Origin: a virus
DNA: 64,000 nt
Direction: 5' to 3' (one strand)
IMG/VR virus record: IMGVR_UViG_3300002098_001673
Location: 41,296 to 105,295 of that record
The notes below the pieces were generated by a model that made no database searches, was not told where the DNA came from, and worked only from the letters and a program-made list of their open reading frames with translations. Positions within the stretch are counted from its first letter, which is position 1; each line of letters begins with the position of its first letter. Position numbers and translations under genes: made by a program. Shown here piece after piece: positions 2,613-41,916 of this stretch.

Positions 2613-3315
2613 TAAACGTTAGTTTTTCTCCTGATGGGGTTGTTACTGTTCTATTCATATCTAATTTTGGTTCGTTTGAATCCATAAATTTTCTAATGTA
2701 TTTTGAATCCGCAATAGGCATTTGTTCTACAAACTTCGCAATTTCGGCTCTATCAGTACTTCCGTCAACTTCAATAATTTCTTTTTGTAGTCTCCATGTT
2801 ACTTTCGGAGCAACTCTTCCTTGAGGGTACGATTCTGTCATTTTTTGTATTTCCATAACCTCACCATAACTTAATGGTTTTATCTTAACCGTTGATTGTG
2901 ATTTAGGTAATGGTGTTACAAACGTACCATCTTCTAATGGGGGTTGTCCATTAATTATTGGTAGTTCATCCAATCTAACAGTTGTTTGGAATGGTTTCCT
3001 TGTTTGGGGGTCAGTTAAAGTCATATTTATTTCAGGACCAAAAGCTGTATTTCTTAAGAAAATTAGAATTGATTCAACATCACCTTCTAATAAATCTTCA
3101 ACTCTAATATCTGGTTCATATATCTTCGCTCTAAGAAGATTTAATGTGAGGTCAGAACCTCCAGCCATTAATATATTTTCATCAGAAGCGGTTAAATATC
3201 CAACTTTAATTGACTTTTTTTTATTTTTATAAAAAACTCCTTGCGATGGTAAAGGAACCACATCATGTGGTAATGTGAAATTTTGTTGAGCGTAATCTCT
3301 TGTTTGATTATCCAT
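2572..3315 (-). CDS. Tail assembly chaperone / baseplate hub assembly protein (T4 gp26-like)
   Basis: LPSQG..Y, LTASDENIL, GDVESILIFLR motifs, C-terminal FFRPFF; position between tube and tape measure. Confidence 0.65.
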   Translation of the reverse strand: MDNQTRDYAQQNFTLPHDVVPLPSQGVFYKNKKKSIKVGYLTASDENILMAGGSDLTLNLLRAKIYEPDIRVEDLLEGDVESILIFLRNTAFGPEINMTLTDPQTRKPFQTTVRLDELPIINGQPPLEDGTFVTPLPKSQSTVKIKPLSYGEVMEIQKMTESYPQGRVAPKVTWRLQKEIIEVDGSTDRAEIAKFVEQMPIADSKYIRKFMDSNEPKLDMNRTVTTPSGEKLTFNVGFGVDFFRPFF

Positions 3316-3317
3316 AT

Positions 3318-3356
3318 AAAAAAATTAACCGTAAAGTTTATGTGCTTTACGGTTAA
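3318..3356 (-). terminator. Rho-independent terminator after tail tube gene
   Basis: 12-bp stem TTAACCGTAAAG (3325-3336) / CTTTACGGTTAA (3345-3356) followed on the minus strand by a T run. Confidence 0.7.
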
Positions 3357-3399
3357 ATATAATTGTTATTATTTTTAAATAAATCTTTTCTTTAAAAAA

Positions 3400-3888
3400 T
3401 TAGTAAACTAATACACATCTGTCCATTCTTAGTGTTGCTGCGATTGTTGCCAAAGCATCTGCATTGTAAGCTAATGTATTAAAGTTAACATCTGTTAAGA
3501 ATGTACCATATAATATCCATTTTTCAACAACAACTCCAGTTGGGTCCAACATTTCCAAGTCAATGTCTTTCTTATACCCTGCAGCGTATCCCATTCTACC
3601 TGTAACAGACTCAGCGTGTAGACGAACCCATTCCATTAGGGCTTGAGCCGCAGAAGGTCCTATTGGGTCTCTAAATGTAACATTAAGAGTTTGCCATGTA
3701 AATCTACCAGCAACATATGTTGACGTATTTAAAAAGGGTATTTCTACCGGATTAATCATAATGTGAGGTCTTTGGGCTGTTTCTACAAACCACTCATTTA
3801 TTCCCAAACTTGATGGAAATCTTAAAATGAATCGATTCTGACGTTTCGGTTCATACGGTATCGGCATTTTCATTAGTAAATCAGCCAT
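3400..3888 (-). CDS. Tail tube protein (T4 gp19-like)
   Basis: 162 aa; YEPKRQNRF, YVAGRFTW, YKKDIDLEMLDPTGVVVEKW motifs; near sheath gene. Confidence 0.85.
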   Translation of the reverse strand: MADLLMKMPIPYEPKRQNRFILRFPSSLGINEWFVETAQRPHIMINPVEIPFLNTSTYVAGRFTWQTLNVTFRDPIGPSAAQALMEWVRLHAESVTGRMGYAAGYKKDIDLEMLDPTGVVVEKWILYGTFLTDVNFNTLAYNADALATIAATLRMDRCVLVY

Positions 3889-3978
3889 ATTATTATAATT
3901 TTGTTTTTTTGTTTATTTATATAAATATATCTTAGTTAAAAATTTTTCTATTTACTTTATTTTTAAATAAATTATTTC

Positions 3979-4806
3979 TTATTTAACTTCCTTTTTAATT
4001 CCTCCAGCAGTAGAATAAGTCCTAACTAGATTATCTGGTTTATCTTTAAAATGTTTCTTCATTACTTCAACATTTCTAATATCATCATCTGAAAATCCAA
4101 TTAATGGTTTTTCTGGTTTAAATTTATTAGCAATATCTTTTTTTAGATATGCTTTTTTATTTAATAGTGCCGCCATTCCTTTAATGTAAGAAACGAAATC
4201 ATCCATTGCCATAACTTTTAATTCTTCAGGATTTGCACTAGAACCACCCCCAAATGTTACAGGGTGATATTTGTTGAGTTCTAAATAAGATTTTATTAAT
4301 TCATTATCTGACATATCATCTTCATCCACAAAAGACCTATATTTTTTTAAGTTTTTAACTAATTGATTTTTATCAATACCATTAAATCCTGTAATAATAT
4401 AATTATAAATCGCTTGTTTTAATGTGTTTGGATTATGTCCCCTAGCAGTAATTATGGAAAAAATTGACCCATTATTTATTGACTCTTTAAAATCATCAAA
4501 TGCTGGACCTGGTTTTGCTTTCATTGCATCAATCAAGAAAGTTTTATCACCTTCAGTTCTAAAATTTCTAAAAGGATTTTCCGCAAATCCGACTATTTTT
4601 TCTCCATGATAATTAAAAGGTTTTGAACCAATCATTGTTCTATATTCGGCAAAATCTTCAGTACTCATTCCAATCTCATCACCATTATCATTTTTTAAAA
4701 TAATTTTTGTTGGCATATGAACAATATTATCATCCCAATCGAATGCATAATATTTCATGTCAGGGGTACCTTCTTCTTTGAAACCTTCTTTAAATTCTTT
4801 TCTCAT
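3979..4806 (-). CDS. HAD-superfamily phosphatase-like protein
   Basis: N-terminal FDWDDN (DxD), ITARG, FSDDD motifs. Confidence 0.6.
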   Translation of the reverse strand: MRKEFKEGFKEEGTPDMKYYAFDWDDNIVHMPTKIILKNDNGDEIGMSTEDFAEYRTMIGSKPFNYHGEKIVGFAENPFRNFRTEGDKTFLIDAMKAKPGPAFDDFKESINNGSIFSIITARGHNPNTLKQAIYNYIITGFNGIDKNQLVKNLKKYRSFVDEDDMSDNELIKSYLELNKYHPVTFGGGSSANPEELKVMAMDDFVSYIKGMAALLNKKAYLKKDIANKFKPEKPLIGFSDDDIRNVEVMKKHFKDKPDNLVRTYSTAGGIKKEVK

Positions 4807-4816
4807 GTTAAATTAA

Positions 4817-4843
4817 AACTGGGATACAATATGTACCCCAGTT
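4817..4843 (-). terminator. Hairpin downstream of tail sheath gene
   Basis: AACTGGGATACA...TGTACCCCAGTT stem with one wobble pair. Confidence 0.5.
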
Positions 4844-4853
4844 ATTTTTTTTA

Positions 4854-7800
4854 TTATATGTTTTCAAATGAAGCTCCTGTTGGTGTGATAAAGAATTCAA
4901 TATCAATAAATTCAAGAGCTTTAGTTGGTTTAAGATAAATTTTACCTGTTAAAGTATTTCTATCTAAATCTTCAGGTGATGAAGAAACTGTTACACGGAA
5001 ATCATAAAGACCTCTATCTCTTCTGATAGAATCCAAAATAGGATTAACGCTATCCAAGAATTGTTGTCTAACGATTTGGTCGTTTTGTTCGAACAATAAT
5101 CTTACTGCTACAGCTGATATTAATTTACGAGCTTGTAATAATAATCTTCTTACATTTAACCTGTTCAATGCTGATTCAGTTACTTGTAAAGTTTTATTAC
5201 CCCAAATTACAGTTCCTACATCGGAGAAAGTTGCGATTGGGTTAATTCTACCTTGATAAAGTGTATCTCTATCTTCTTGAGTTAACTTACGTCTAGCTTT
5301 AATTGAATTTACAAGACCTCTTGTGTAACCCGCTGATGCGAACCAAGGGAATGCAATGTTATCTGTTAATGCTAAGTTTCTACAAACTTCACCTGTTGGC
5401 GGAAGATATATTTGTGTATTATTCACAGTATCTCTCACAAGTATCCAAGGATAGTAAGTTGCTGTATAGTTTGAATCAATTCCTGTATTATCAAGATTAT
5501 CAACAGCTTCTTGTGGATAAATCACATCATATTGACTTGTTCCATCAGGAGTATACATGTTATAATCTGGTGTTGTTGCAATATAAACAGAATCCGCTCT
5601 TTGATATTGAACCATATTAATAGTCTCTTCCACTAAATTGGAGTTATTAACATAATCGATACCTGCAGTAGCAAAAACATTAATGTTTGTTGCTTCAGGA
5701 TTTGCAAAAGTTAAAATACCAAGTAAATAAGCGTAGTAATCAGAATTAGCAAAATCTTGAGTATTGTTTTGAACAACAATCCTTTTGAATAAACCATCTC
5801 CTGTAGCTGTTGGATACCTTGTTGAAGGTGCTGCTCCCGCTAAATAACCTGACGCTCCTAATTGGAATCTATCTTGGTTTGTTCTATATTCTCTATAAAT
5901 GTCCCATCCATCAAATCCACCCGCAAAACATACTGTATATTTTCTTGAGTAAATAAAATAATAAGGATTTTCTTGAGTTTCTGGGTCAAATCTAAAATCC
6001 GCAACTCCACATTCAAAAGCAGTTTCACCACTTGTTAATAAAGCCGAATTTGAAATTGAAACTACAGTAGCTCCTGAGTCCATGTGAAATCCTTTACTTA
6101 AGTAATTCCAAGGTGCAGAATCTGTAGCATCTGCCCATCCAACTATTGGATTTTGTTTTCCCTTATATTCTAAGAAAGATTCGTCAATTCCAAATTGACT
6201 TGAAAATCCTAAATAAGTTCTTCTAACAATATCACCTCCAGATTCAACAGCATTTGAACCTCCTGAACTTGTTCCAAATGGAGGGTCAAATACTACTTCA
6301 CCAGGATAATAGTATTTTGTTTTATATACAGGATATGGTGATGGATTATTAACACTTTCATATTGTCTCTGTGTGTAACCATAGAATCCACAAGGAAGTG
6401 CATCTATAGGATAATCATTAGCCATTTCCAACATGATGTATTTTGAAATCAGTGCAAATTCACCATTTGAAGAGCCTATTTTTTTAGCAACAAAACTATT
6501 TGAACCAGGGTCCATAGTACAGTTTGTGAACTTTTCAATAACAACAGGATTTGCGTCTGTATCGTAGAAGTTTCTAACTAATACATCAAATGTCATATTG
6601 TTAAATGATAAGTTTGCAATTGAAACTTTAATTTCTGTATTTGCAGATGCTCCGTCAGATATCGAAATAAATTTAAATAATCTATAAACTTTATTACCTC
6701 TTAATTCTGAAACTAAAAAAGGTGTTTCAGGAGATTGATATTTTTCCAAATTCCAAGCTATAGATGAAGGGCTTTCACTTCTTGCGTCTGGAAGAGCAAT
6801 TAAATCACATTTTAAACCACGGATATAACCTTTATTGTATGCGTAATTTAATGTCGCTTGATAATACTCCTCAACAAAAATAGGAACTTGAGTTCTATTT
6901 TTTCCAAAGTTATCAATACCAAGAACTTTTGTAATATATTTTGAAGAAGATGCTAACATCGAAACTTCAAATGAGAAAGTGTTACTATCTTTAGTTATAC
7001 CTGAAAGTAAAAATGTTGCGTATGGATTTTGAGTTATACCCGAATACTGACCACTACAAACTAATTGTAAATCAGTTAATCCACTAACTTCATAAACGGG
7101 ACCATGGTCAACACTATCACTACTATTAGAATATAATGATATACCTCTAGAACGAAGAGTTGAAACAACCATATTATTAAAATTAGTATATGCTGTTCCT
7201 GTAAAAGAATATGTTTTACCAGTTATAGTACCTGTAAAAGTGTTTGATGGTCCTGAAACTAAAGATGTAATAACATAATCAAAAGAATATCCTGTATAAT
7301 TATTACCACTTGTAATATCAAAATTCGCATAAAACCAAGGGTCGTTGGAAGATGCTGTTAAATCATTTGTAGCTAAATTATTTGTATCACATCCATATAC
7401 ATTAGTAACTGCTGAATATTGACCTGTTATTGTATTATAATTTTGTTCAGGTATCGCTCCATACATAACAACAGTTGTTGCCGATGTTTGAGGACTATCA
7501 TAAATAGAATTAATTATATTAGTAAAATCGGATGATAATGTTGATACACTGCCATCAGATAATCTATATTGTTTGTTAAAGTTTACCAAAACATTAGCAG
7601 GTAAAGAACCACTAACAAATGTTAATGTATTAGCTGAAGAAATTCCTGTGAAACTTGCCGTAAAAGTAGTTGCAGATATTCCTGAATTAATACCAATTGT
7701 TGTTGGGTCAACATTAGCAATTAAACTAAGGCTCCATGAAGGACCAGCATCATAACCAGATAATCCTAAAATTCTAGTTACAAATAATTGATTAGATTGT

Positions 7801-10380: not shown

Positions 10381-13300
10381 ATGAACAAAGAAATAAGTTT
10401 AGAATCGAAAGCTATGTCCATCCTTGAGACATATGATGGAGGTAATAATTATATATTTGAATTAAAAAGAAAATCTCAAATTAATAAAAAGTTTTATCCG
10501 ACAAGAAGTCAATCAGAATATATTATTAATTTTCATGATAAACCACCGAAAATTGCAAAGAAGTGGGTAATATTAGATTCGTATTTTGCACAAAAATTAG
10601 CTGACGATAAATTATATACAGAAATTCCACAAAAAATTTGGGTTGAAAAACTTTTAGCAGATAAAGAAAAATCTTATCATATTTGGGGAAAAGTATTTGA
10701 AACAGAACAACTTCATGATTTTTGGTTACCAAAGGCATCAATCATTAAAGATAACAGAGTAAAAGATGTTGTTATTAATTATGACAAATATTCAAATCGT
10801 CCACCACTACCGCATCAAAAAGAAGCGATTCAAAAGCTGGTTGAAAATAAAAAATTTATACTTGCTGACGATATGGGTTTGGGTAAAGGGATTACCAATA
10901 ACACACTGATTTACAATGAATTGGGAGTAAAAAAAATGGGTGAAATTGTGGTTGGAGATAGGGTTATTGGTTCCGATGGTAAAGCATATAATGTGAATGG
11001 TGTGTATCCTCAAGGAAAAAAAGAAACGTACAAAATCACGTTTAATGATGGATATTCCATAATAACGGATGACGTACATTTATGGTCGGTATCTTCACCC
11101 AATTATGGTGAAAATAGAAAAAACGAAAGACGAAAAAAATCTTTAACTCTATCTACTAAACAAATGTACGAAGGAGGTAAGATTATAATAAAAGGTGATG
11201 GTTATAATTCGGAAAAAAAATATGAAGTTGAAACTTTTTATAAATCACCAAACGGAAATAATAAATGGCAAATACCTATTGTTCAACCTATCCATTTCAA
11301 AAATAAATATGATTTACCAATTGACCCCTATTTGTTGGGACTATCGTTGGGTGACGGTTATTTTGATAAGTACAAGAATTGTCGCTTTACCGTTCACAAA
11401 AATGATTATGATGAATTATTTCAAAATTTTGATTTGAAAAAAATCAAAACAAGAGTCAATCAAAAAGGTGGATATATAAATTTTCAAAATAAATTAAATG
11501 ACTTAAAATTAAACAATACTAAAGCCCATAATAAATTTATACCTGATATATACAAATACACATCAATTGAAAATCGTCTTGCGATTTTACAAGGTTTAAT
11601 GGACACTGATGGTCACTGTATGATATCAAAAAACGGTAGTTTTAACGGAACCGAATTTTCAACAATTTCAGAAAAACTTTGTGATGATGTTTGTGAAATT
11701 GTACAAACATTGGGTGGAATAGCACGTAAAAAATCAAGACGTAGTTTCTACAAAAAAGATGGTAAACGAATTGAATGTAACATATCTTATCGAGTTAACA
11801 TTAAATTACCAAAGGGTATGAACCCATTTAAGTTAAAAAGAAAAGCAGATAGATATGTCGAACCAAAAAAATATCCAATCGGAAGATATATAACAAATAT
11901 TGAAAAATATGGGGAAGATGAATGTACTTGTATATCTGTGGATTCTCCAGATAAATTATATGTAGCCCAACATTGTATAGTAACACATAATACTACGTCA
12001 ACCATAATTGCCACTTTAGAAACAGGAGCAAAAAAAGTTCTGATTATATGTCCTGCAACACTTAAGATAAATTGGAAAAGAGAAATTGAAAACTATACAG
12101 ACAGAAGTATATTCATTGCGGAAGGTAAAAACTTTTCAACCGTTCACGATTTTGTTATAATAAATTATGATATCATAAAAAATTTTCACGAAACCAAAAA
12201 GAATGGTAAATCTTTAATTAACGATACAAATTTTGATTTAGTAATTTTAGATGAATGTTTTACATACGACACTAAAATTATGACCGAATCTGGTGAAAAA
12301 AATATTGGAGATATTGTAGAGAATGGATTAGATATTAAAATTTTAACATATAACCATAGAAATAAAATTTTGGAATATAAAAAAATAAATAGATGGATTA
12401 GAAAAAATAAAGACACTATTTACAAAATAAAACTCAACAACGGACTATTTTTAGAGTGTACTGATAATCATAAATTCTATGTAAATAATAAAGGATATGT
12501 TAGGGCAAACGAACTCACAACAACCGATGACTTGTATATGTTGTCAGAAATTACTAACGAAGAAACAGATTTGGAAAAAAACAAAATGTTGCTCAAAAAG
12601 TTGTGCATCTATAATAAGGAACAAAACTTCACCACAAAAAACAAAAGAATTGAAGTTTCACAAAAATTGTCCGGAATGTGGAATCCTAATGAGTTTTACA
12701 ACGGACATAAAAATGAAAAAGAAAACATATTGCTCTGTAAAATGTTCAAACAAAGTAAAATCAAAAAATCCAGAGGTAAGAGAAAAACGGAGAAAAACAA
12801 TAGAAAAAAATGGGGGGTGGTCAAAAATAATGAAAAATACTCATATGAAAAATCCTCATACGGCAAAATTTTCTTCTCAAAGGATGAAAAAAAACAACCC
12901 AATGAAAAATTTGGAGAGTTTAGAAAAAATGAGAGAAAAATTAAAAGGAAGAACCTTCTTATCAAGAGGAGGGAATGGGAAAATAACACCACAACAAGAA
13001 ATATTATTTCAAATGTTAGGGGAAGGATGGATAATGGAATTACCAATTCTAACAGAAAATGCAAAAATGTTATTCAAAAGTTTGCCACCATCATACAAAG
13101 TAGATATTGGAAACCCAAAACTAAAAATATCCATAGAAATAGATGGGAGAACGCACAAACAAAAAAAGTGGAAATTTTTGGACAAGAGAAAAACCAAAAT
13201 ATTAAATATGTTAGGGTGGAAAGTATTGAGATTTTGGAACGAGGAAGTTATGACAAATCCACAAAAATGCATTCAACAAATACAAGAGTGTATGATTTAG

Positions 13301-14337
13301 AAATTGAGGATAATCATAACTATTTTGCAAATAATATTTTAGTTAGTAATTGTCACTATATCAAAAATGTTACAGCGCAAAGAACAAAACTAATTAATGA
13401 TTTTGTAAAAAATATTGACAGGTTATGGTTATTGTCTGGTACACCAATGACATCAAGACCAATTGATTATTTTAATTTATTAAGTTTAGTTGATTCTCCT
13501 ACAGCAAAAAATTGGATGGCTTATGCAATTAGATATTGCCAAGGATATCAATTTAATGTTGGAGGTAGAAAAGTTTGGAATGTTGTCGGAGCCTCAAATT
13601 TAGAAGAATTGAGGGATAGAACCTCCCCAACAATCTTAAGAAGATTAAAAGAAGATGTTCTTGATTTGCCTGAAAAAATAATAACACCAATCTACCTTAG
13701 ATTAAAATCTAAAGAATATGAAGAAGTTATGGGTGAATATTATAATTGGTATGATAAAAATCCTGAAGAGTCAAAATCATTAACAGTTCAGTTTACCAAA
13801 TTAACAAAAATACGACAAATCATTGCCAATGAAAAAATAGAACATACAATTGAGCTTGCTGAAAATATTATTGAACAAGGAAAAAAAGTAATCATATTTT
13901 GTAACTTTACAGAATCTTTAGAAAAGATAACACAACACTTTGGTAAGAGTGCTGTTAAGTTAAATGGAACAATGTCAAAGGTAGAGAAACAAAACAGCGT
14001 TGACCAATTTCAAGAAAATGAAAAAATAAAAGTATTTGTTGGTAACATTAAAGCGGCAGGTGTTGGTATTACATTAACTGCTGCTGAAGCTGTTATAATG
14101 AATGATTTATCTTTTTTACCTTCAGACCATTCACAAGCAGAAGACCGTAGTTATAGGTATGGTCAAAAAAATAATGTTTTAGTATATTATCCAATATTTG
14201 AAAATACAATTGAAGGGATAATATATGATATATTGAATAATAAAAAACAAGTGATTGCAACAGTAATGGGGGATAATCAAAATTCTGCAAATGCTGCTGA
14301 AGAAATACTACAAAGAATTAATGAATTAAGGCAATAA
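10381..14337 (+). CDS. SNF2-family helicase/ATPase interrupted by two inteins (about 585 aa after splicing)
   Basis: Motif I LADDMGLGK|T, Ia LIICPATL, II ILDE|CH, III LSGTP, V AAGVGITL, VI QAEDRSYRYGQ. Confidence 0.95.
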   Translation: MNKEISLESKAMSILETYDGGNNYIFELKRKSQINKKFYPTRSQSEYIINFHDKPPKIAKKWVILDSYFAQKLADDKLYTEIPQKIWVEKLLADKEKSYHIWGKVFETEQLHDFWLPKASIIKDNRVKDVVINYDKYSNRPPLPHQKEAIQKLVENKKFILADDMGLGKGITNNTLIYNELGVKKMGEIVVGDRVIGSDGKAYNVNGVYPQGKKETYKITFNDGYSIITDDVHLWSVSSPNYGENRKNERRKKSLTLSTKQMYEGGKIIIKGDGYNSEKKYEVETFYKSPNGNNKWQIPIVQPIHFKNKYDLPIDPYLLGLSLGDGYFDKYKNCRFTVHKNDYDELFQNFDLKKIKTRVNQKGGYINFQNKLNDLKLNNTKAHNKFIPDIYKYTSIENRLAILQGLMDTDGHCMISKNGSFNGTEFSTISEKLCDDVCEIVQTLGGIARKKSRRSFYKKDGKRIECNISYRVNIKLPKGMNPFKLKRKADRYVEPKKYPIGRYITNIEKYGEDECTCISVDSPDKLYVAQHCIVTHNTTSTIIATLETGAKKVLIICPATLKINWKREIENYTDRSIFIAEGKNFSTVHDFVIINYDIIKNFHETKKNGKSLINDTNFDLVILDECFTYDTKIMTESGEKNIGDIVENGLDIKILTYNHRNKILEYKKINRWIRKNKDTIYKIKLNNGLFLECTDNHKFYVNNKGYVRANELTTTDDLYMLSEITNEETDLEKNKMLLKKLCIYNKEQNFTTKNKRIEVSQKLSGMWNPNEFYNGHKNEKENILLCKMFKQSKIKKSRGKRKTEKNNRKKWGVVKNNEKYSYEKSSYGKIFFSKDEKKQPNEKFGEFRKNERKIKRKNLLIKRREWENNTTTRNIISNVRGRMDNGITNSNRKCKNVIQKFATIIQSRYWKPKTKNIHRNRWENAQTKKVEIFGQEKNQNIKYVRVESIEILERGSYDKSTKMHSTNTRVYDLEIEDNHNYFANNILVSNCHYIKNVTAQRTKLINDFVKNIDRLWLLSGTPMTSRPIDYFNLLSLVDSPTAKNWMAYAIRYCQGYQFNVGGRKVWNVVGASNLEELRDRTSPTILRRLKEDVLDLPEKIITPIYLRLKSKEYEEVMGEYYNWYDKNPEESKSLTVQFTKLTKIRQIIANEKIEHTIELAENIIEQGKKVIIFCNFTESLEKITQHFGKSAVKLNGTMSKVEKQNSVDQFQENEKIKVFVGNIKAAGVGITLTAAEAVIMNDLSFLPSDHSQAEDRSYRYGQKNNVLVYYPIFENTIEGIIYDILNNKKQVIATVMGDNQNSANAAEEILQRINELRQ
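10888..11991 (+). mobile_element. Intein 1 (368 aa), class 3-type with LAGLIDADG homing endonuclease
   Basis: Inserted in Walker A GK|T; starts with Gly, ends VTHN before Thr; block B HLW, block F CTCISV; LAGLIDADG motifs LLGLSLGDG and LQGLMDTDG. Confidence 0.9.
12256..13350 (+). mobile_element. Intein 2 (365 aa) with out-of-frame nested endonuclease gene
   Basis: Inserted in DE|CH; starts CFTYDTKI, block B CTDNHKF, block F VYDLEIEDNHNYFAN, ends LVSN before Cys. Confidence 0.9.
12497..13300 (+). CDS. Zn-finger + DUF559/Vsr-like endonuclease nested in the +1 frame of intein 2 (start may be 12527)
   Basis: Two CxxC...CSxxC modules, basic NP-containing repeats, then YKVDI...IEIDGRTH...D.RKTKIL..LGWKVLRFWNEEV; own ATG and TAG. 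Confidence 0.85.
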   Translation: MLGQTNSQQPMTCICCQKLLTKKQIWKKTKCCSKSCASIIRNKTSPQKTKELKFHKNCPECGILMSFTTDIKMKKKTYCSVKCSNKVKSKNPEVREKRRKTIEKNGGWSKIMKNTHMKNPHTAKFSSQRMKKNNPMKNLESLEKMREKLKGRTFLSRGGNGKITPQQEILFQMLGEGWIMELPILTENAKMLFKSLPPSYKVDIGNPKLKISIEIDGRTHKQKKWKFLDKRKTKILNMLGWKVLRFWNEEVMTNPQKCIQQIQECMI

Positions 14338-40279: not shown

Positions 40280-41916
40280 TAACTGTAGGTTATTCAACAA
40301 GAAAATCAAATCCTGAATTTACAGAATATTTGAAAAAAAGTTCTGGATTTAAAAAAATTAATGTTATTGAAAAAATAAATAATGGTGAGAAATCATTGTC
40401 TCAAGTTTATAATGAAATATTATCTGAATCTACAACTGACATAATTGTTTTTTGTCATGACGACATTTATTTTGATACTCCTGGTTGGTATTATAAATTA
40501 CTAAAACATTTTCAAAAAACTGATTATGGTATTTTAGGAGTTGCAGGAACAACAGATATGTCAGAAACTGGTAGATGGTGGGAGACAAATAAAAGAAAAA
40601 ACATGATTGGAATTGTTAATCATGAAAGTGGTGGTAAAAAATGGACATCAAAATATTCTGAAGATTTTAATAACGGTATTAAACAATCTGTAATTGTTGA
40701 TGGACTTTTTATTGCAGTTAATAAACAAAGAATTAAAAGTAATTTTATTGAATCTTTTAAAGGGTTTCACTTTTATGACATTTCTTTTTGTTTTGAAAAT
40801 CATATACAAGGGGTTAAAGTTGGGGTTATCACAAATGTTAGAATTACACATAAATCTATCGGAGAAACTAATGAACAATGGGAAGAAAATAGAATTCAAT
40901 TTGCCGAAAAATATAAAAATAACTTCCCTGCAAAAGTACCTTTTGACCCAAATAAAAGGATAAAAGTTTTATTATCTTGTTTATTTTTCGGAGGATTTAC
41001 TGGTTCTGAATTATATGTATTTGAACTCGCTAAAAGTTTAATGAAACTTAATTGCAGTGTTACTGTATTGTCTCAAATAGGAGGTCCATTAACAGATATG
41101 GCAAAAAAAATAGGAATTAAATGTTTATCCTATGAGAACGCTCCAGGGTTTAAATTAGGTGATGGGGTTTGGTCATTTAATGGACCAAACGGAAAAGAAG
41201 TTTCAAAATTAAATACATTATATAAAATATCAGATGTTGATTTTGATATAATACATGTCCAACATAAACCAGTCGCTGAAAGAATTCTTGGTATGTATCC
41301 TGACATAAATATGATTTGTACAATACACTCTGAAGTAATGTCTAAAAATCTTGAGGACCCAATTATCAATAATTCAATAAAAAAATACATCGCAATTAGA
41401 CCTGAAATTAAAGAACATCTTATCAATAATTTTGATATTCCTGAGAATATGATTGAAATCATTTACAATCCTATTGATAATGAAAAATTTAAACATAAAG
41501 ATATTAAAGAAGAAAATTGTTTAGTTTTTGTTGGAACAATTGATTATTTGAGAGAAAAGGCGATTAAAGATTTGATTGAAAAAACAAAAAATGATGGATT
41601 GGAATTATGGCTAATTGGTGAGAATAAATCAAATTATTTGGAAGATATTTTACAAAATTCGCATGTGAAACATTTTCCTCCAACATGGAATGTAGAGCAG
41701 TATGTTACCAAATGTAAAGAAACTGCAGGAATACAATTAGGAAGAACCACAATTGAGGGATGGATGTGTAATAAACCTGGATGGATATATAAAGTAGATT
41801 CTAATGGTGATATTTTAGAAATAACTAAAAATGAGCCACCCTCCGACATTGAAAAGTATTATTCATTAAATGTTGCCAATCAAATAAAAGAAGAATATAT
41901 TAAAATATTATCATGA
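40276..41916 (+). CDS. Bifunctional GT-A + GT-B glycosyltransferase
   Basis: VFCHDD, VDGLF, FHFYD in N half; TGSELYVFELA, GRTTIEGW in C half. Confidence 0.8.
   Translation: MITVGYSTRKSNPEFTEYLKKSSGFKKINVIEKINNGEKSLSQVYNEILSESTTDIIVFCHDDIYFDTPGWYYKLLKHFQKTDYGILGVAGTTDMSETGRWWETNKRKNMIGIVNHESGGKKWTSKYSEDFNNGIKQSVIVDGLFIAVNKQRIKSNFIESFKGFHFYDISFCFENHIQGVKVGVITNVRITHKSIGETNEQWEENRIQFAEKYKNNFPAKVPFDPNKRIKVLLSCLFFGGFTGSELYVFELAKSLMKLNCSVTVLSQIGGPLTDMAKKIGIKCLSYENAPGFKLGDGVWSFNGPNGKEVSKLNTLYKISDVDFDIIHVQHKPVAERILGMYPDINMICTIHSEVMSKNLEDPIINNSIKKYIAIRPEIKEHLINNFDIPENMIEIIYNPIDNEKFKHKDIKEENCLVFVGTIDYLREKAIKDLIEKTKNDGLELWLIGENKSNYLEDILQNSHVKHFPPTWNVEQYVTKCKETAGIQLGRTTIEGWMCNKPGWIYKVDSNGDILEITKNEPPSDIEKYYSLNVANQIKEEYIKILS

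Follow-up and report, generated by a model that had tools for sequence, protein, structure and literature searches.

A nuclease gene overprinted in the +1 frame of a helicase intein

We analyzed a 64,000-nucleotide stretch of viral DNA (the window; positions 41,296 to 105,295 of IMG/VR record IMGVR_UViG_3300002098_001673), in which an SNF2-family helicase gene carries two inteins. The second of these, intein 2, is a contiguous class 1 intein of 365 amino acids (12256–13350; this and all other features described here lie on the plus strand). Within it, in the +1 frame, is a separate open reading frame (ORF) encoding a 267-amino-acid zinc-finger and DUF559/Vsr-like homing endonuclease (12497–13300, with ATG at 12497 and TAG at 13298–13300). 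We conclude, with a probability of roughly 85%, that intein 2 is a mobile element whose homing nuclease is overprinted in the +1 frame and internally initiated, and that the helicase frame across the nuclease gene is kept free of stop codons. A preliminary description of the window, made from the sequence alone, had proposed a separate +1 nuclease gene within a contiguous intein; both ORFs were confirmed, and the same layout was found in 83 of 88 loci.

All the sequence features named in the preliminary description were reproduced, the splicing blocks among them. Intein 2 starts with C1 of CFTYDT, has block B (ECTDNH, containing TDNH) at 12454–12471 and block F (VYDLEI) at 13288–13305, and ends ILVSN|CH. 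Blocks F and G together span 13288–13350, with the terminal Asn codon at 13348–13350 and the +1 Cys codon at 13351–13353. The insertion point lies in Walker B/motif II of the helicase (DE|CH), between the Glu and the residue preceding the His, and the boundaries are fixed by empty alleles that read DE|AHYIKN in 80 relatives. The Pfam Intein_splicing profile covers residues 8–365 (52–56 bits vs. a cut-off of 35.8), and across 59 homologues C1 and N365 were invariant and H72 nearly so.

When the helicase-frame product of intein 2 was modeled with AlphaFold2 (AF2), pLDDT (predicted local distance difference test) scores were 82–94 for residues 1–100, 35–48 for residues 101–313, and 72–94 for residues 316–365. 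The first of these segments is the N-terminal splicing domain (12256–12555), which also displays host-frame codon periodicity. The folded ends of the model match the mini-inteins 1ZD7, 1MI8, and 4KL5, and also 8UBS, at E values of about 1e-7, and the split inteins gp41-1 and NrdJ-1 were among the structural matches as well. As had been described, the helicase frame runs without a stop through the center of the intein. It has no predicted structure there (pLDDT 35–48): the helicase-frame reading of the overlap is a K/N/R/E-rich stretch of about 215 amino acids (12556–13200). The models support the view that this stretch is a structureless linker that splicing would remove.

The +1 reading of the same DNA is quite different, and profile and structure analysis of both frames bore out the division proposed earlier, with the +1 product predicted to fold and the helicase-frame product to do so only at the intein ends. 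The nested product matches Pfam DUF559 (PF04480) with E = 6.4e-15 (55.4 bits vs. a cut-off of 20.6), and its AF2 model, built from an alignment of 61 homologues, has a mean pLDDT of 91. Searched against the PDB, the 61-homologue profile found the DUF559 structure 3HRL at 4e-13 and 3R3P, the catalytic domain of I-Bth0305I, at 3e-4. Foldseek likewise ranked 3HRL (target TM-score [TMt] 0.71) and 3R3P (TMt 0.68) at the top, with TnsA and Vsr (1VSR, 1CW0), at probabilities of 0.92–1.0 but with E values of only 3e-3 to 6e-2.

Two CxxC...CSxxC zinc modules of the nuclease occupy 12533–12745 (12533–12604 and 12668–12745); residues C58, C61, C79, and C83 are invariant among the 61 homologues, and the profile weakly matches (E about 5e-3) 2L8E and 2DAS, zinc fingers of the FCS/MYM type. 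These modules are probably the DNA-binding part of the enzyme. They are followed by repeats of a helical motif, MK(K)N(N)P(M) (12845–12904), that resembles NUMOD and in which R129, M130, N134, and P135 are nearly invariant; a Pfam search of the nuclease did not match NUMOD, although both the MKxNPM helices and the zinc modules are conserved. The catalytic core (YKVDIG, IEIDGRTH, LDKRK, and GWKVLRFWN; 13094–13240) aligns to 3HRL and 3R3P. Across the 61 homologues its residues D203, D216, H220, D229, R245, and N248 do not vary, and E214 is kept in at least 90%. The conserved acidic and His residues may correspond to the EDxHD positions of I-Bth0305I.

The overlap reaches functional parts of both proteins, as the preliminary description had pointed out. 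The bases at 13207–13240 are doubly constrained, since they specify both GWKVLRF, a strand of the nuclease, and RVESIEIL, a strand of the intein: GWKVLRFWN (13214–13240) is co-encoded with YVRVESIEIL (13207–13236). The nested TAG is formed from the Leu-Glu codons of block F and falls inside VYDLE.

The open helicase frame is maintained by selection and is not an assembly error

The earlier argument that selection must keep the off-frame codons free of stops was upheld. When the codons of the nuclease ORF were shuffled synonymously 20,000 times, the helicase frame was never left stop-free (mean, 12 stops; minimum, 3), and eleven ordinary gene segments of the window contain 29–44 stops per 267 codons in the equivalent frame. 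Chance openness of the helicase frame is rejected by the shuffles and by the stop counts in ordinary genes and in relatives. How the frame is kept open can be read from nuclease codon usage: T never occurs at the third position before AA, AG, or GA (0 of 99), where G substitutes for it, while T makes up 29% of third positions elsewhere in the nuclease and 45% of the third positions that precede AA, AG, or GA in ordinary window genes. We conclude that the stop-free helicase frame is maintained by selection.

An assembly or sequencing artefact, in which two compensating indels hide a nuclease domain that is truly in frame with the intein, would be the commonest cause a priori of an apparent frameshift in a metagenome contig. 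Logan contigs from four runs belonging to four studies, compared over 12100–13500 (one of the runs covers the region from 12371 only), showed 0 differences and 0 gaps relative to the window. The +1 layout also recurs in 83 of 88 independent loci, including GenBank genomes of cultured phages, and an in-frame version of the nuclease inside the intein was found in none of the 88. An in-frame nuclease would, moreover, leave 250 stop-free codons of helicase frame unexplained. We regard the artefact as having next to no likelihood. Short contigs in two runs match only the block F–G end of the intein (window positions 13309–13352, with 4 differences) and then continue into unrelated sequence; these are probably related inteins in other genes of co-occurring phages.

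Substitution patterns indicate which frame is under selection in each part of the intein. Using 12 unique sequences of the window's clade, we measured diversity at helicase codon positions 1, 2, and 3, which was 0.215, 0.142, and 0.381 in the intein N-domain; 0.381, 0.267, and 0.244 in the overlap; and 0.172, 0.103, and 0.307 after the overlap. Outside the overlap, diversity is highest at host position 3; within it, host position 3 is the most conserved and the peak falls on nuclease position 3, indicating that the wobble position moves to the nuclease frame. The synonymous share of differing codons in the helicase frame was 0.38 in the N-domain, 0.06 in the overlap, and 0.45 at the C-end, and the corresponding shares in the +1 frame were 0.10, 0.33, and 0.09. 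In every pair compared, nuclease identity exceeded helicase-frame identity over the same DNA (e.g., 83.5% vs. 67.1%). These frame-specific substitution tests point to purifying selection on the nuclease frame across the overlap, and the substitutions there follow the nuclease frame.

The layout recurs across a large phage-borne family

A scan of IMG/VR recovered 154 relatives of the nuclease, of which we analyzed the best 80, together with 8 from prokaryote genome bins. The nuclease is nested in the +1 frame of a long open frame in 77 of the 80 viral loci and 6 of the 8 genome-bin loci (83 of 88), and among the best 80 of the 154 viral loci stops crowd the third frame in every case. Host-frame stops are entirely lacking from the 69 unique nested ORFs, vs. 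a mean of 13.5 expected. Three control loci with a free-standing nuclease (L056, L084, and L087) have 21–39 stops in the equivalent frame.

Three kinds of host gene are represented, each with the interruption at Walker B: SNF2 helicases, other superfamily 2 (SF2; ResIII/DEAD) helicases, and DnaX-like clamp loaders. Pfam searches over 58 loci matched Intein_splicing in 54, Helicase_C in 33, and DNA_pol3_delta2 in 22. In a quick maximum-likelihood tree of the nuclease, three clades track host type, with 6 label changes vs. 30.6 in shuffles, the labels having been assigned from short motifs. Three loci (L046, L079, and L085) carry the intein two to three residues further downstream, at DEAH|C, DEAQR|C, and DESH|C rather than DE|C, which implies at least two neighboring Walker B insertion points in the intein family.

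The register of the two frames is fixed. In 61 of 61 motif-bearing loci, the bases that encode GW.VLRF of the nuclease also encode RVESIEI of the intein. A median of 16 intein residues separates the nested stop from the C-terminal Asn; this stop is mostly TAG (53 of 65 loci) and is made by Leu/Ile-Glu codons of block F. A register fixed across so large a phage-borne family probably reflects a single origin.

The arrangement is also present, unannotated, in public phage genomes. A tblastn search of GenBank phages with the nuclease matched 40 records, mostly Vibrio phages. Among the matches listed (25 of the 40), the nuclease match underlies an annotated helicase or similar coding sequence (CDS), and the annotation names only a helicase, a P-loop NTPase, or a "coil containing protein." In Vibrio phage CP-T1 gp10 (L002; NC_019457, 6842–9823) and V. 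lentus phage 1.088.O (L003; MG592463, 44535–47237), the nuclease match is in the +1 frame relative to the CDS, the same nested ORF lies within an intein at DE|CH, and the host frame is open; only the helicase CDS is annotated in each, neither the nested ORF nor the intein.

Two loci depart from the layout in an informative way. L043 (2292–4433), which has a DnaX-like host, retains the nested form with one host-frame stop, at 3249. The control L058 (2226–4163) has 15 host-frame stops and is fully fractured in the manner described by Dassa et al.: the N-part of the helicase, the nuclease, and the C-part of the helicase are separate ORFs and the C-part has its own ATG. L043 and L058 are possibly stages on the way from an overprinted intein to a split intein. 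We considered whether the window itself holds such a split intein, with the helicase halves trans-spliced and read-through irrelevant. The existence of L058 and L043, and the presence of gp41-1 and NrdJ-1 among the structural matches of intein 2, would fit this idea. However, the window and 82 other loci are free of the approximately 12–14 stops expected, which is sensible only if read-through is required, and a stop after intein-N with a new start before intein-C, as in fractured genes, was found only in L058 and not in the window. We therefore consider a split intein in the window very unlikely.

In L056 (2950–5081), a free-standing nuclease homologue (2950–3588) immediately precedes an SF2 helicase gene that is split into two ORFs (3557–3928 and 3891–5081) precisely at its DE|H motif, the presumed target site of the nuclease family. 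The break may be a scar left by repair, a mutation conferring resistance, a frameshift, or simply an error.

Probable expression of the nested gene

The preliminary description had left open whether the nuclease is translated from an internal start or by frameshifting; evidence from the relatives favors the first and speaks against the second. The nested start is ATG in 57 of 69 loci, and in most loci a stop in the nested frame lies 0–45 nucleotides (nt) upstream of it. A Shine-Dalgarno motif is located at -7 to -16 of the nested start, inside the intein coding sequence, in at least 33 of the 69, with clear AAGGAG-type sites in L026, L036, L051, L053, and L057. The ATG at 12497 is conserved in the window's clade. 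A second ATG, at 12527, had been named as an alternative start and is disfavored, since its Met is not conserved in the clade.

Programmed +1 frameshifting would instead yield a fusion of N-extein, intein-N, and nuclease, and the window's nested ATG, which has no normal initiation signal, could be taken to favor it. However, the +1 stops just upstream of the nested start leave almost no room for a shift site in most loci, a conserved slippery motif was not seen, and both the prevalence of ATG and the Shine-Dalgarno motifs of relatives whose hosts use them speak for initiation. This phage, moreover, appears to initiate all its genes without such a motif: a Shine-Dalgarno motif at -7 to -16 is missing from every one of the 52 window ORFs that are at least 150 amino acids long, and their upstream regions are A/T-rich, which suggests a Bacteroidota-like host that initiates without Shine-Dalgarno sequences, in a freshwater setting. 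The absence of the motif before ATG 12497 is thus normal for this phage. Taken together, the ATG, Shine-Dalgarno, and upstream-stop evidence and the general lack of Shine-Dalgarno motifs in the window favor independent internal initiation, and we infer from the sequence that the nuclease is made in this way from ATG 12497. Frameshifting, by comparison, seems improbable.

Probable mobility of intein 2

The 80 closest relatives of the C-extein (84–98% identity) all lack intein 2 and read DE|AHYIKN. The preliminary description had assumed an empty allele of GATGAA|TGTCAC; this needs correction, as the natural alleles read GATGAA|GCACAC (DE|AH), so that in coding terms the junctions differ solely by GCA (Ala) in the empty alleles vs. 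TGT (Cys). Intein-free alleles occur at 97–98% extein identity. Similarities of intein and extein are also incongruent: the extein of L005 is 76% identical and its intein N-domain 90%, and the extein of L006 is 84% identical and its nuclease 76%. These comparisons suggest that intein 2 is still mobile.

If the nested nuclease were an inactive relic and the intein vertically inherited baggage, neither the intein-free alleles at such high extein identity nor the incongruence would be expected, and the catalytic residues would hardly be invariant in 61 homologues or the nuclease frame under purifying selection. Decayed endonucleases are, to be sure, common in inteins, and a penultimate Ser and a very long linker might lower the fitness of this one. 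On balance we think a relic very unlikely.

A proposed mechanism and its implications

We propose that intein 2 carries its homing endonuclease not as an in-frame domain but as a gene of its own, overprinted in the +1 frame where an endonuclease is usually inserted. During translation of the helicase, ribosomes would read through the overlap, so that some 215 disordered residues would link the two HINT halves, and the intein would then splice out, linker included, restoring DE-CH. The nuclease would be translated independently by internal initiation at ATG 12497 and presumably cuts intein-less DE|AH alleles in co-infecting relatives, after which repair would copy the intein and the nested gene together into the cut allele. 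Over the overlap, selection acts on the nuclease protein and, in the helicase frame, almost only to exclude stops, which amounts to a ban on T-ending nuclease codons before AA, AG, or GA; at the 3' end of the overlap, the same bases constrain both proteins.

Several points weigh against this reading. Splicing of intein 2, translation of the nested ORF, and cleavage by the nuclease are all inferred. The penultimate residue of the intein is Ser in the window's clade instead of the usual His (most other loci have HN). At the nested ATG of the window, AAAGGA stands just 1 nt upstream, and a recognizable initiation signal is lacking. Sigma-70-type promoters inside the intein show no excess (9 vs. 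8.8 expected in shuffles), the host probably using other promoter types than sigma-70, and RNA structure was not found at the nested start (z-score, 0.02). Three of the four runs that agree with the window may be source samples and hence not fully independent. Finally, the host-type labels on the nuclease tree came from short motifs and not from profile searches.

The locus shows that a coding region can accommodate an entire overprinted gene of about 800 nt when all that still constrains the region there is the need to avoid stop codons, and the cost of overprinting can be quantified as the loss of T-ending codons before AA, AG, or GA, where T otherwise accounts for 45%. Within a large phage lineage this layout is the norm (83 of 88 loci), yet the GenBank records examined, CP-T1 gp10 included, do not annotate it. 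Inteins scored as "mini" or "decaying" merit screening in all frames. The family may also offer natural inteins that tolerate linkers of >200 residues and site-specific nucleases aimed at Walker B codons.

One nuclease lineage joins contiguous inteins, fractured genes, and free-standing endonucleases, which bears on the origin of split inteins. Tentatively, and with less confidence than we would need to prefer it, we suggest that the whole family stems from one ancient overprinting event and has since diversified within, and occasionally jumped between, three Walker B DExH ATPase families, forming a stable third coupling of endonuclease and intein and a direct source of split inteins. Were this so, overprinting would stand beside in-frame fusion and gene fracture as a way of linking an endonuclease to an intein, and natural split inteins could arise from it directly, since one nonsense mutation in the linker would convert the overprinted form to a fractured gene (L043 has one stop and L058 has 15).

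Relation to known inteins and endonucleases

The novelty suspected in the preliminary description did not hold for the general design, which had already been published: intein endonucleases in another frame or on the other strand were proposed in 1998 and described in preprints of 2025 and 2026. According to the later preprints that cite it, Gorbalenya (1998) proposed an out-of-frame intein endonuclease for dnaX. Gosselin, Arsenault, and Gogarten (bioRxiv 10.1101/2025.01.02.630785) described actinobacteriophage inteins in which LAGLIDADG and Vsr-like genes lie antisense and an endonuclease VII-like gene lies in frame 3, and stated that Vsr-like endonucleases are otherwise known only from split inteins. 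Like intein 2, these are contiguous inteins with an endonuclease in another frame or strand; their in-frame centers are predicted to be unstructured while the other frame folds as a nuclease; and they are missed by annotation and seemingly still being transferred. They differ in that their Vsr-like genes are antisense and their sense case is endonuclease VII-like and in frame 3, whereas here a Vsr-like/DUF559 gene is in the sense +1 frame. They interrupt genes for DNA polymerase, minor capsid, terminase, and thymidylate synthase, not the Walker B motifs of helicases and clamp loaders.

Phillips, DeSimone, and Gogarten (bioRxiv 10.64898/2026.09.14.751524) reported a cyanobacterial dnaX intein with a LAGLIDADG gene in the +2 frame. 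It resembles intein 2 in having a sense-strand overlapping ORF within a contiguous intein and frame-dependent selection, with omega low in the endonuclease frame and high in the intein frame, and, as in relatives of the window's nuclease, a Shine-Dalgarno sequence precedes the nested start. Its authors proposed that a mini-intein had been invaded secondarily. Unlike that LAGLIDADG, +2 case in a bacterial chromosomal gene, the family described here is DUF559/Vsr-like, +1, and phage-borne, and it occupies three host gene families.

The fractured genes of Dassa et al. (2009; PMC2677866) consist of split inteins with free-standing Vsr-like or GIY-YIG endonuclease genes. They share with intein 2 the nuclease superfamily, its place in the intein, a preference for phage DNA-metabolism genes, and an endonuclease gene whose 3' end overlaps the downstream intein part. 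However, they have two host ORFs and an overlap of 6–69 bp, in contrast to the unbroken host ORF and full 804-nt overlap seen here, and the model presented for them (Figure 5 of that paper) is without an overprinted state.

The nuclease itself can be compared with I-Bth0305I, the prototype EDxHD homing endonuclease, which is described as having an N-terminal pair of NUMOD repeats (Taylor et al. 2011, PMC3239194; PDB 3R3P). Both have a Vsr-like fold, an N-terminal modular DNA-binding region, a length of about 266 amino acids, and a phage-borne gene. The gene for I-Bth0305I, however, lies within a group I intron of recA without being overprinted, and the enzyme's sequence likeness to the window's nuclease is weak (E = 3e-4); the latter is closer to DUF559 (3HRL, E = 4e-13) and has zinc modules. 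The HNH insertion in a methylase of phage ShiLan (Arsenault et al. 2025, PMC11855218) is likewise a hidden out-of-frame nuclease beneath an open host frame, but it is an HNH enzyme and lacks intein splicing domains. A full-text literature search turned up no sense-strand Vsr-like gene overprinted on a contiguous intein, and this family appears to be unreported so far. It would extend the class of out-of-frame intein endonucleases to a sense-strand Vsr-like family.

The phage and a second intein in the same helicase gene

The source is a 105-kb IMG/VR virus record from freshwater metagenomes. The phage is tailed, has 28% G+C, and encodes a tail sheath and a family B polymerase. No tRNA genes were found in the window, and all of its long ORFs are intact under table 11, so no alternative genetic code is needed. 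The host gene (10381–14337) encodes a 1318-amino-acid SNF2-family helicase precursor with Pfam matches to SNF2-rel_dom (E = 6e-22), Helicase_C (E = 4e-17), and Intein_splicing (E = 6.5e-15).

Intein 1 of the same helicase (10888–11991) is inserted in the P-loop (GLGK|T). Its first residue is Gly, it ends THN|T, and it carries an in-frame LAGLIDADG domain (Pfam LAGLIDADG_3 and Hom_end), features that fit a class 3 intein. Its boundaries were confirmed by 80 relatives that lack it and read GLGK|TTSTII.

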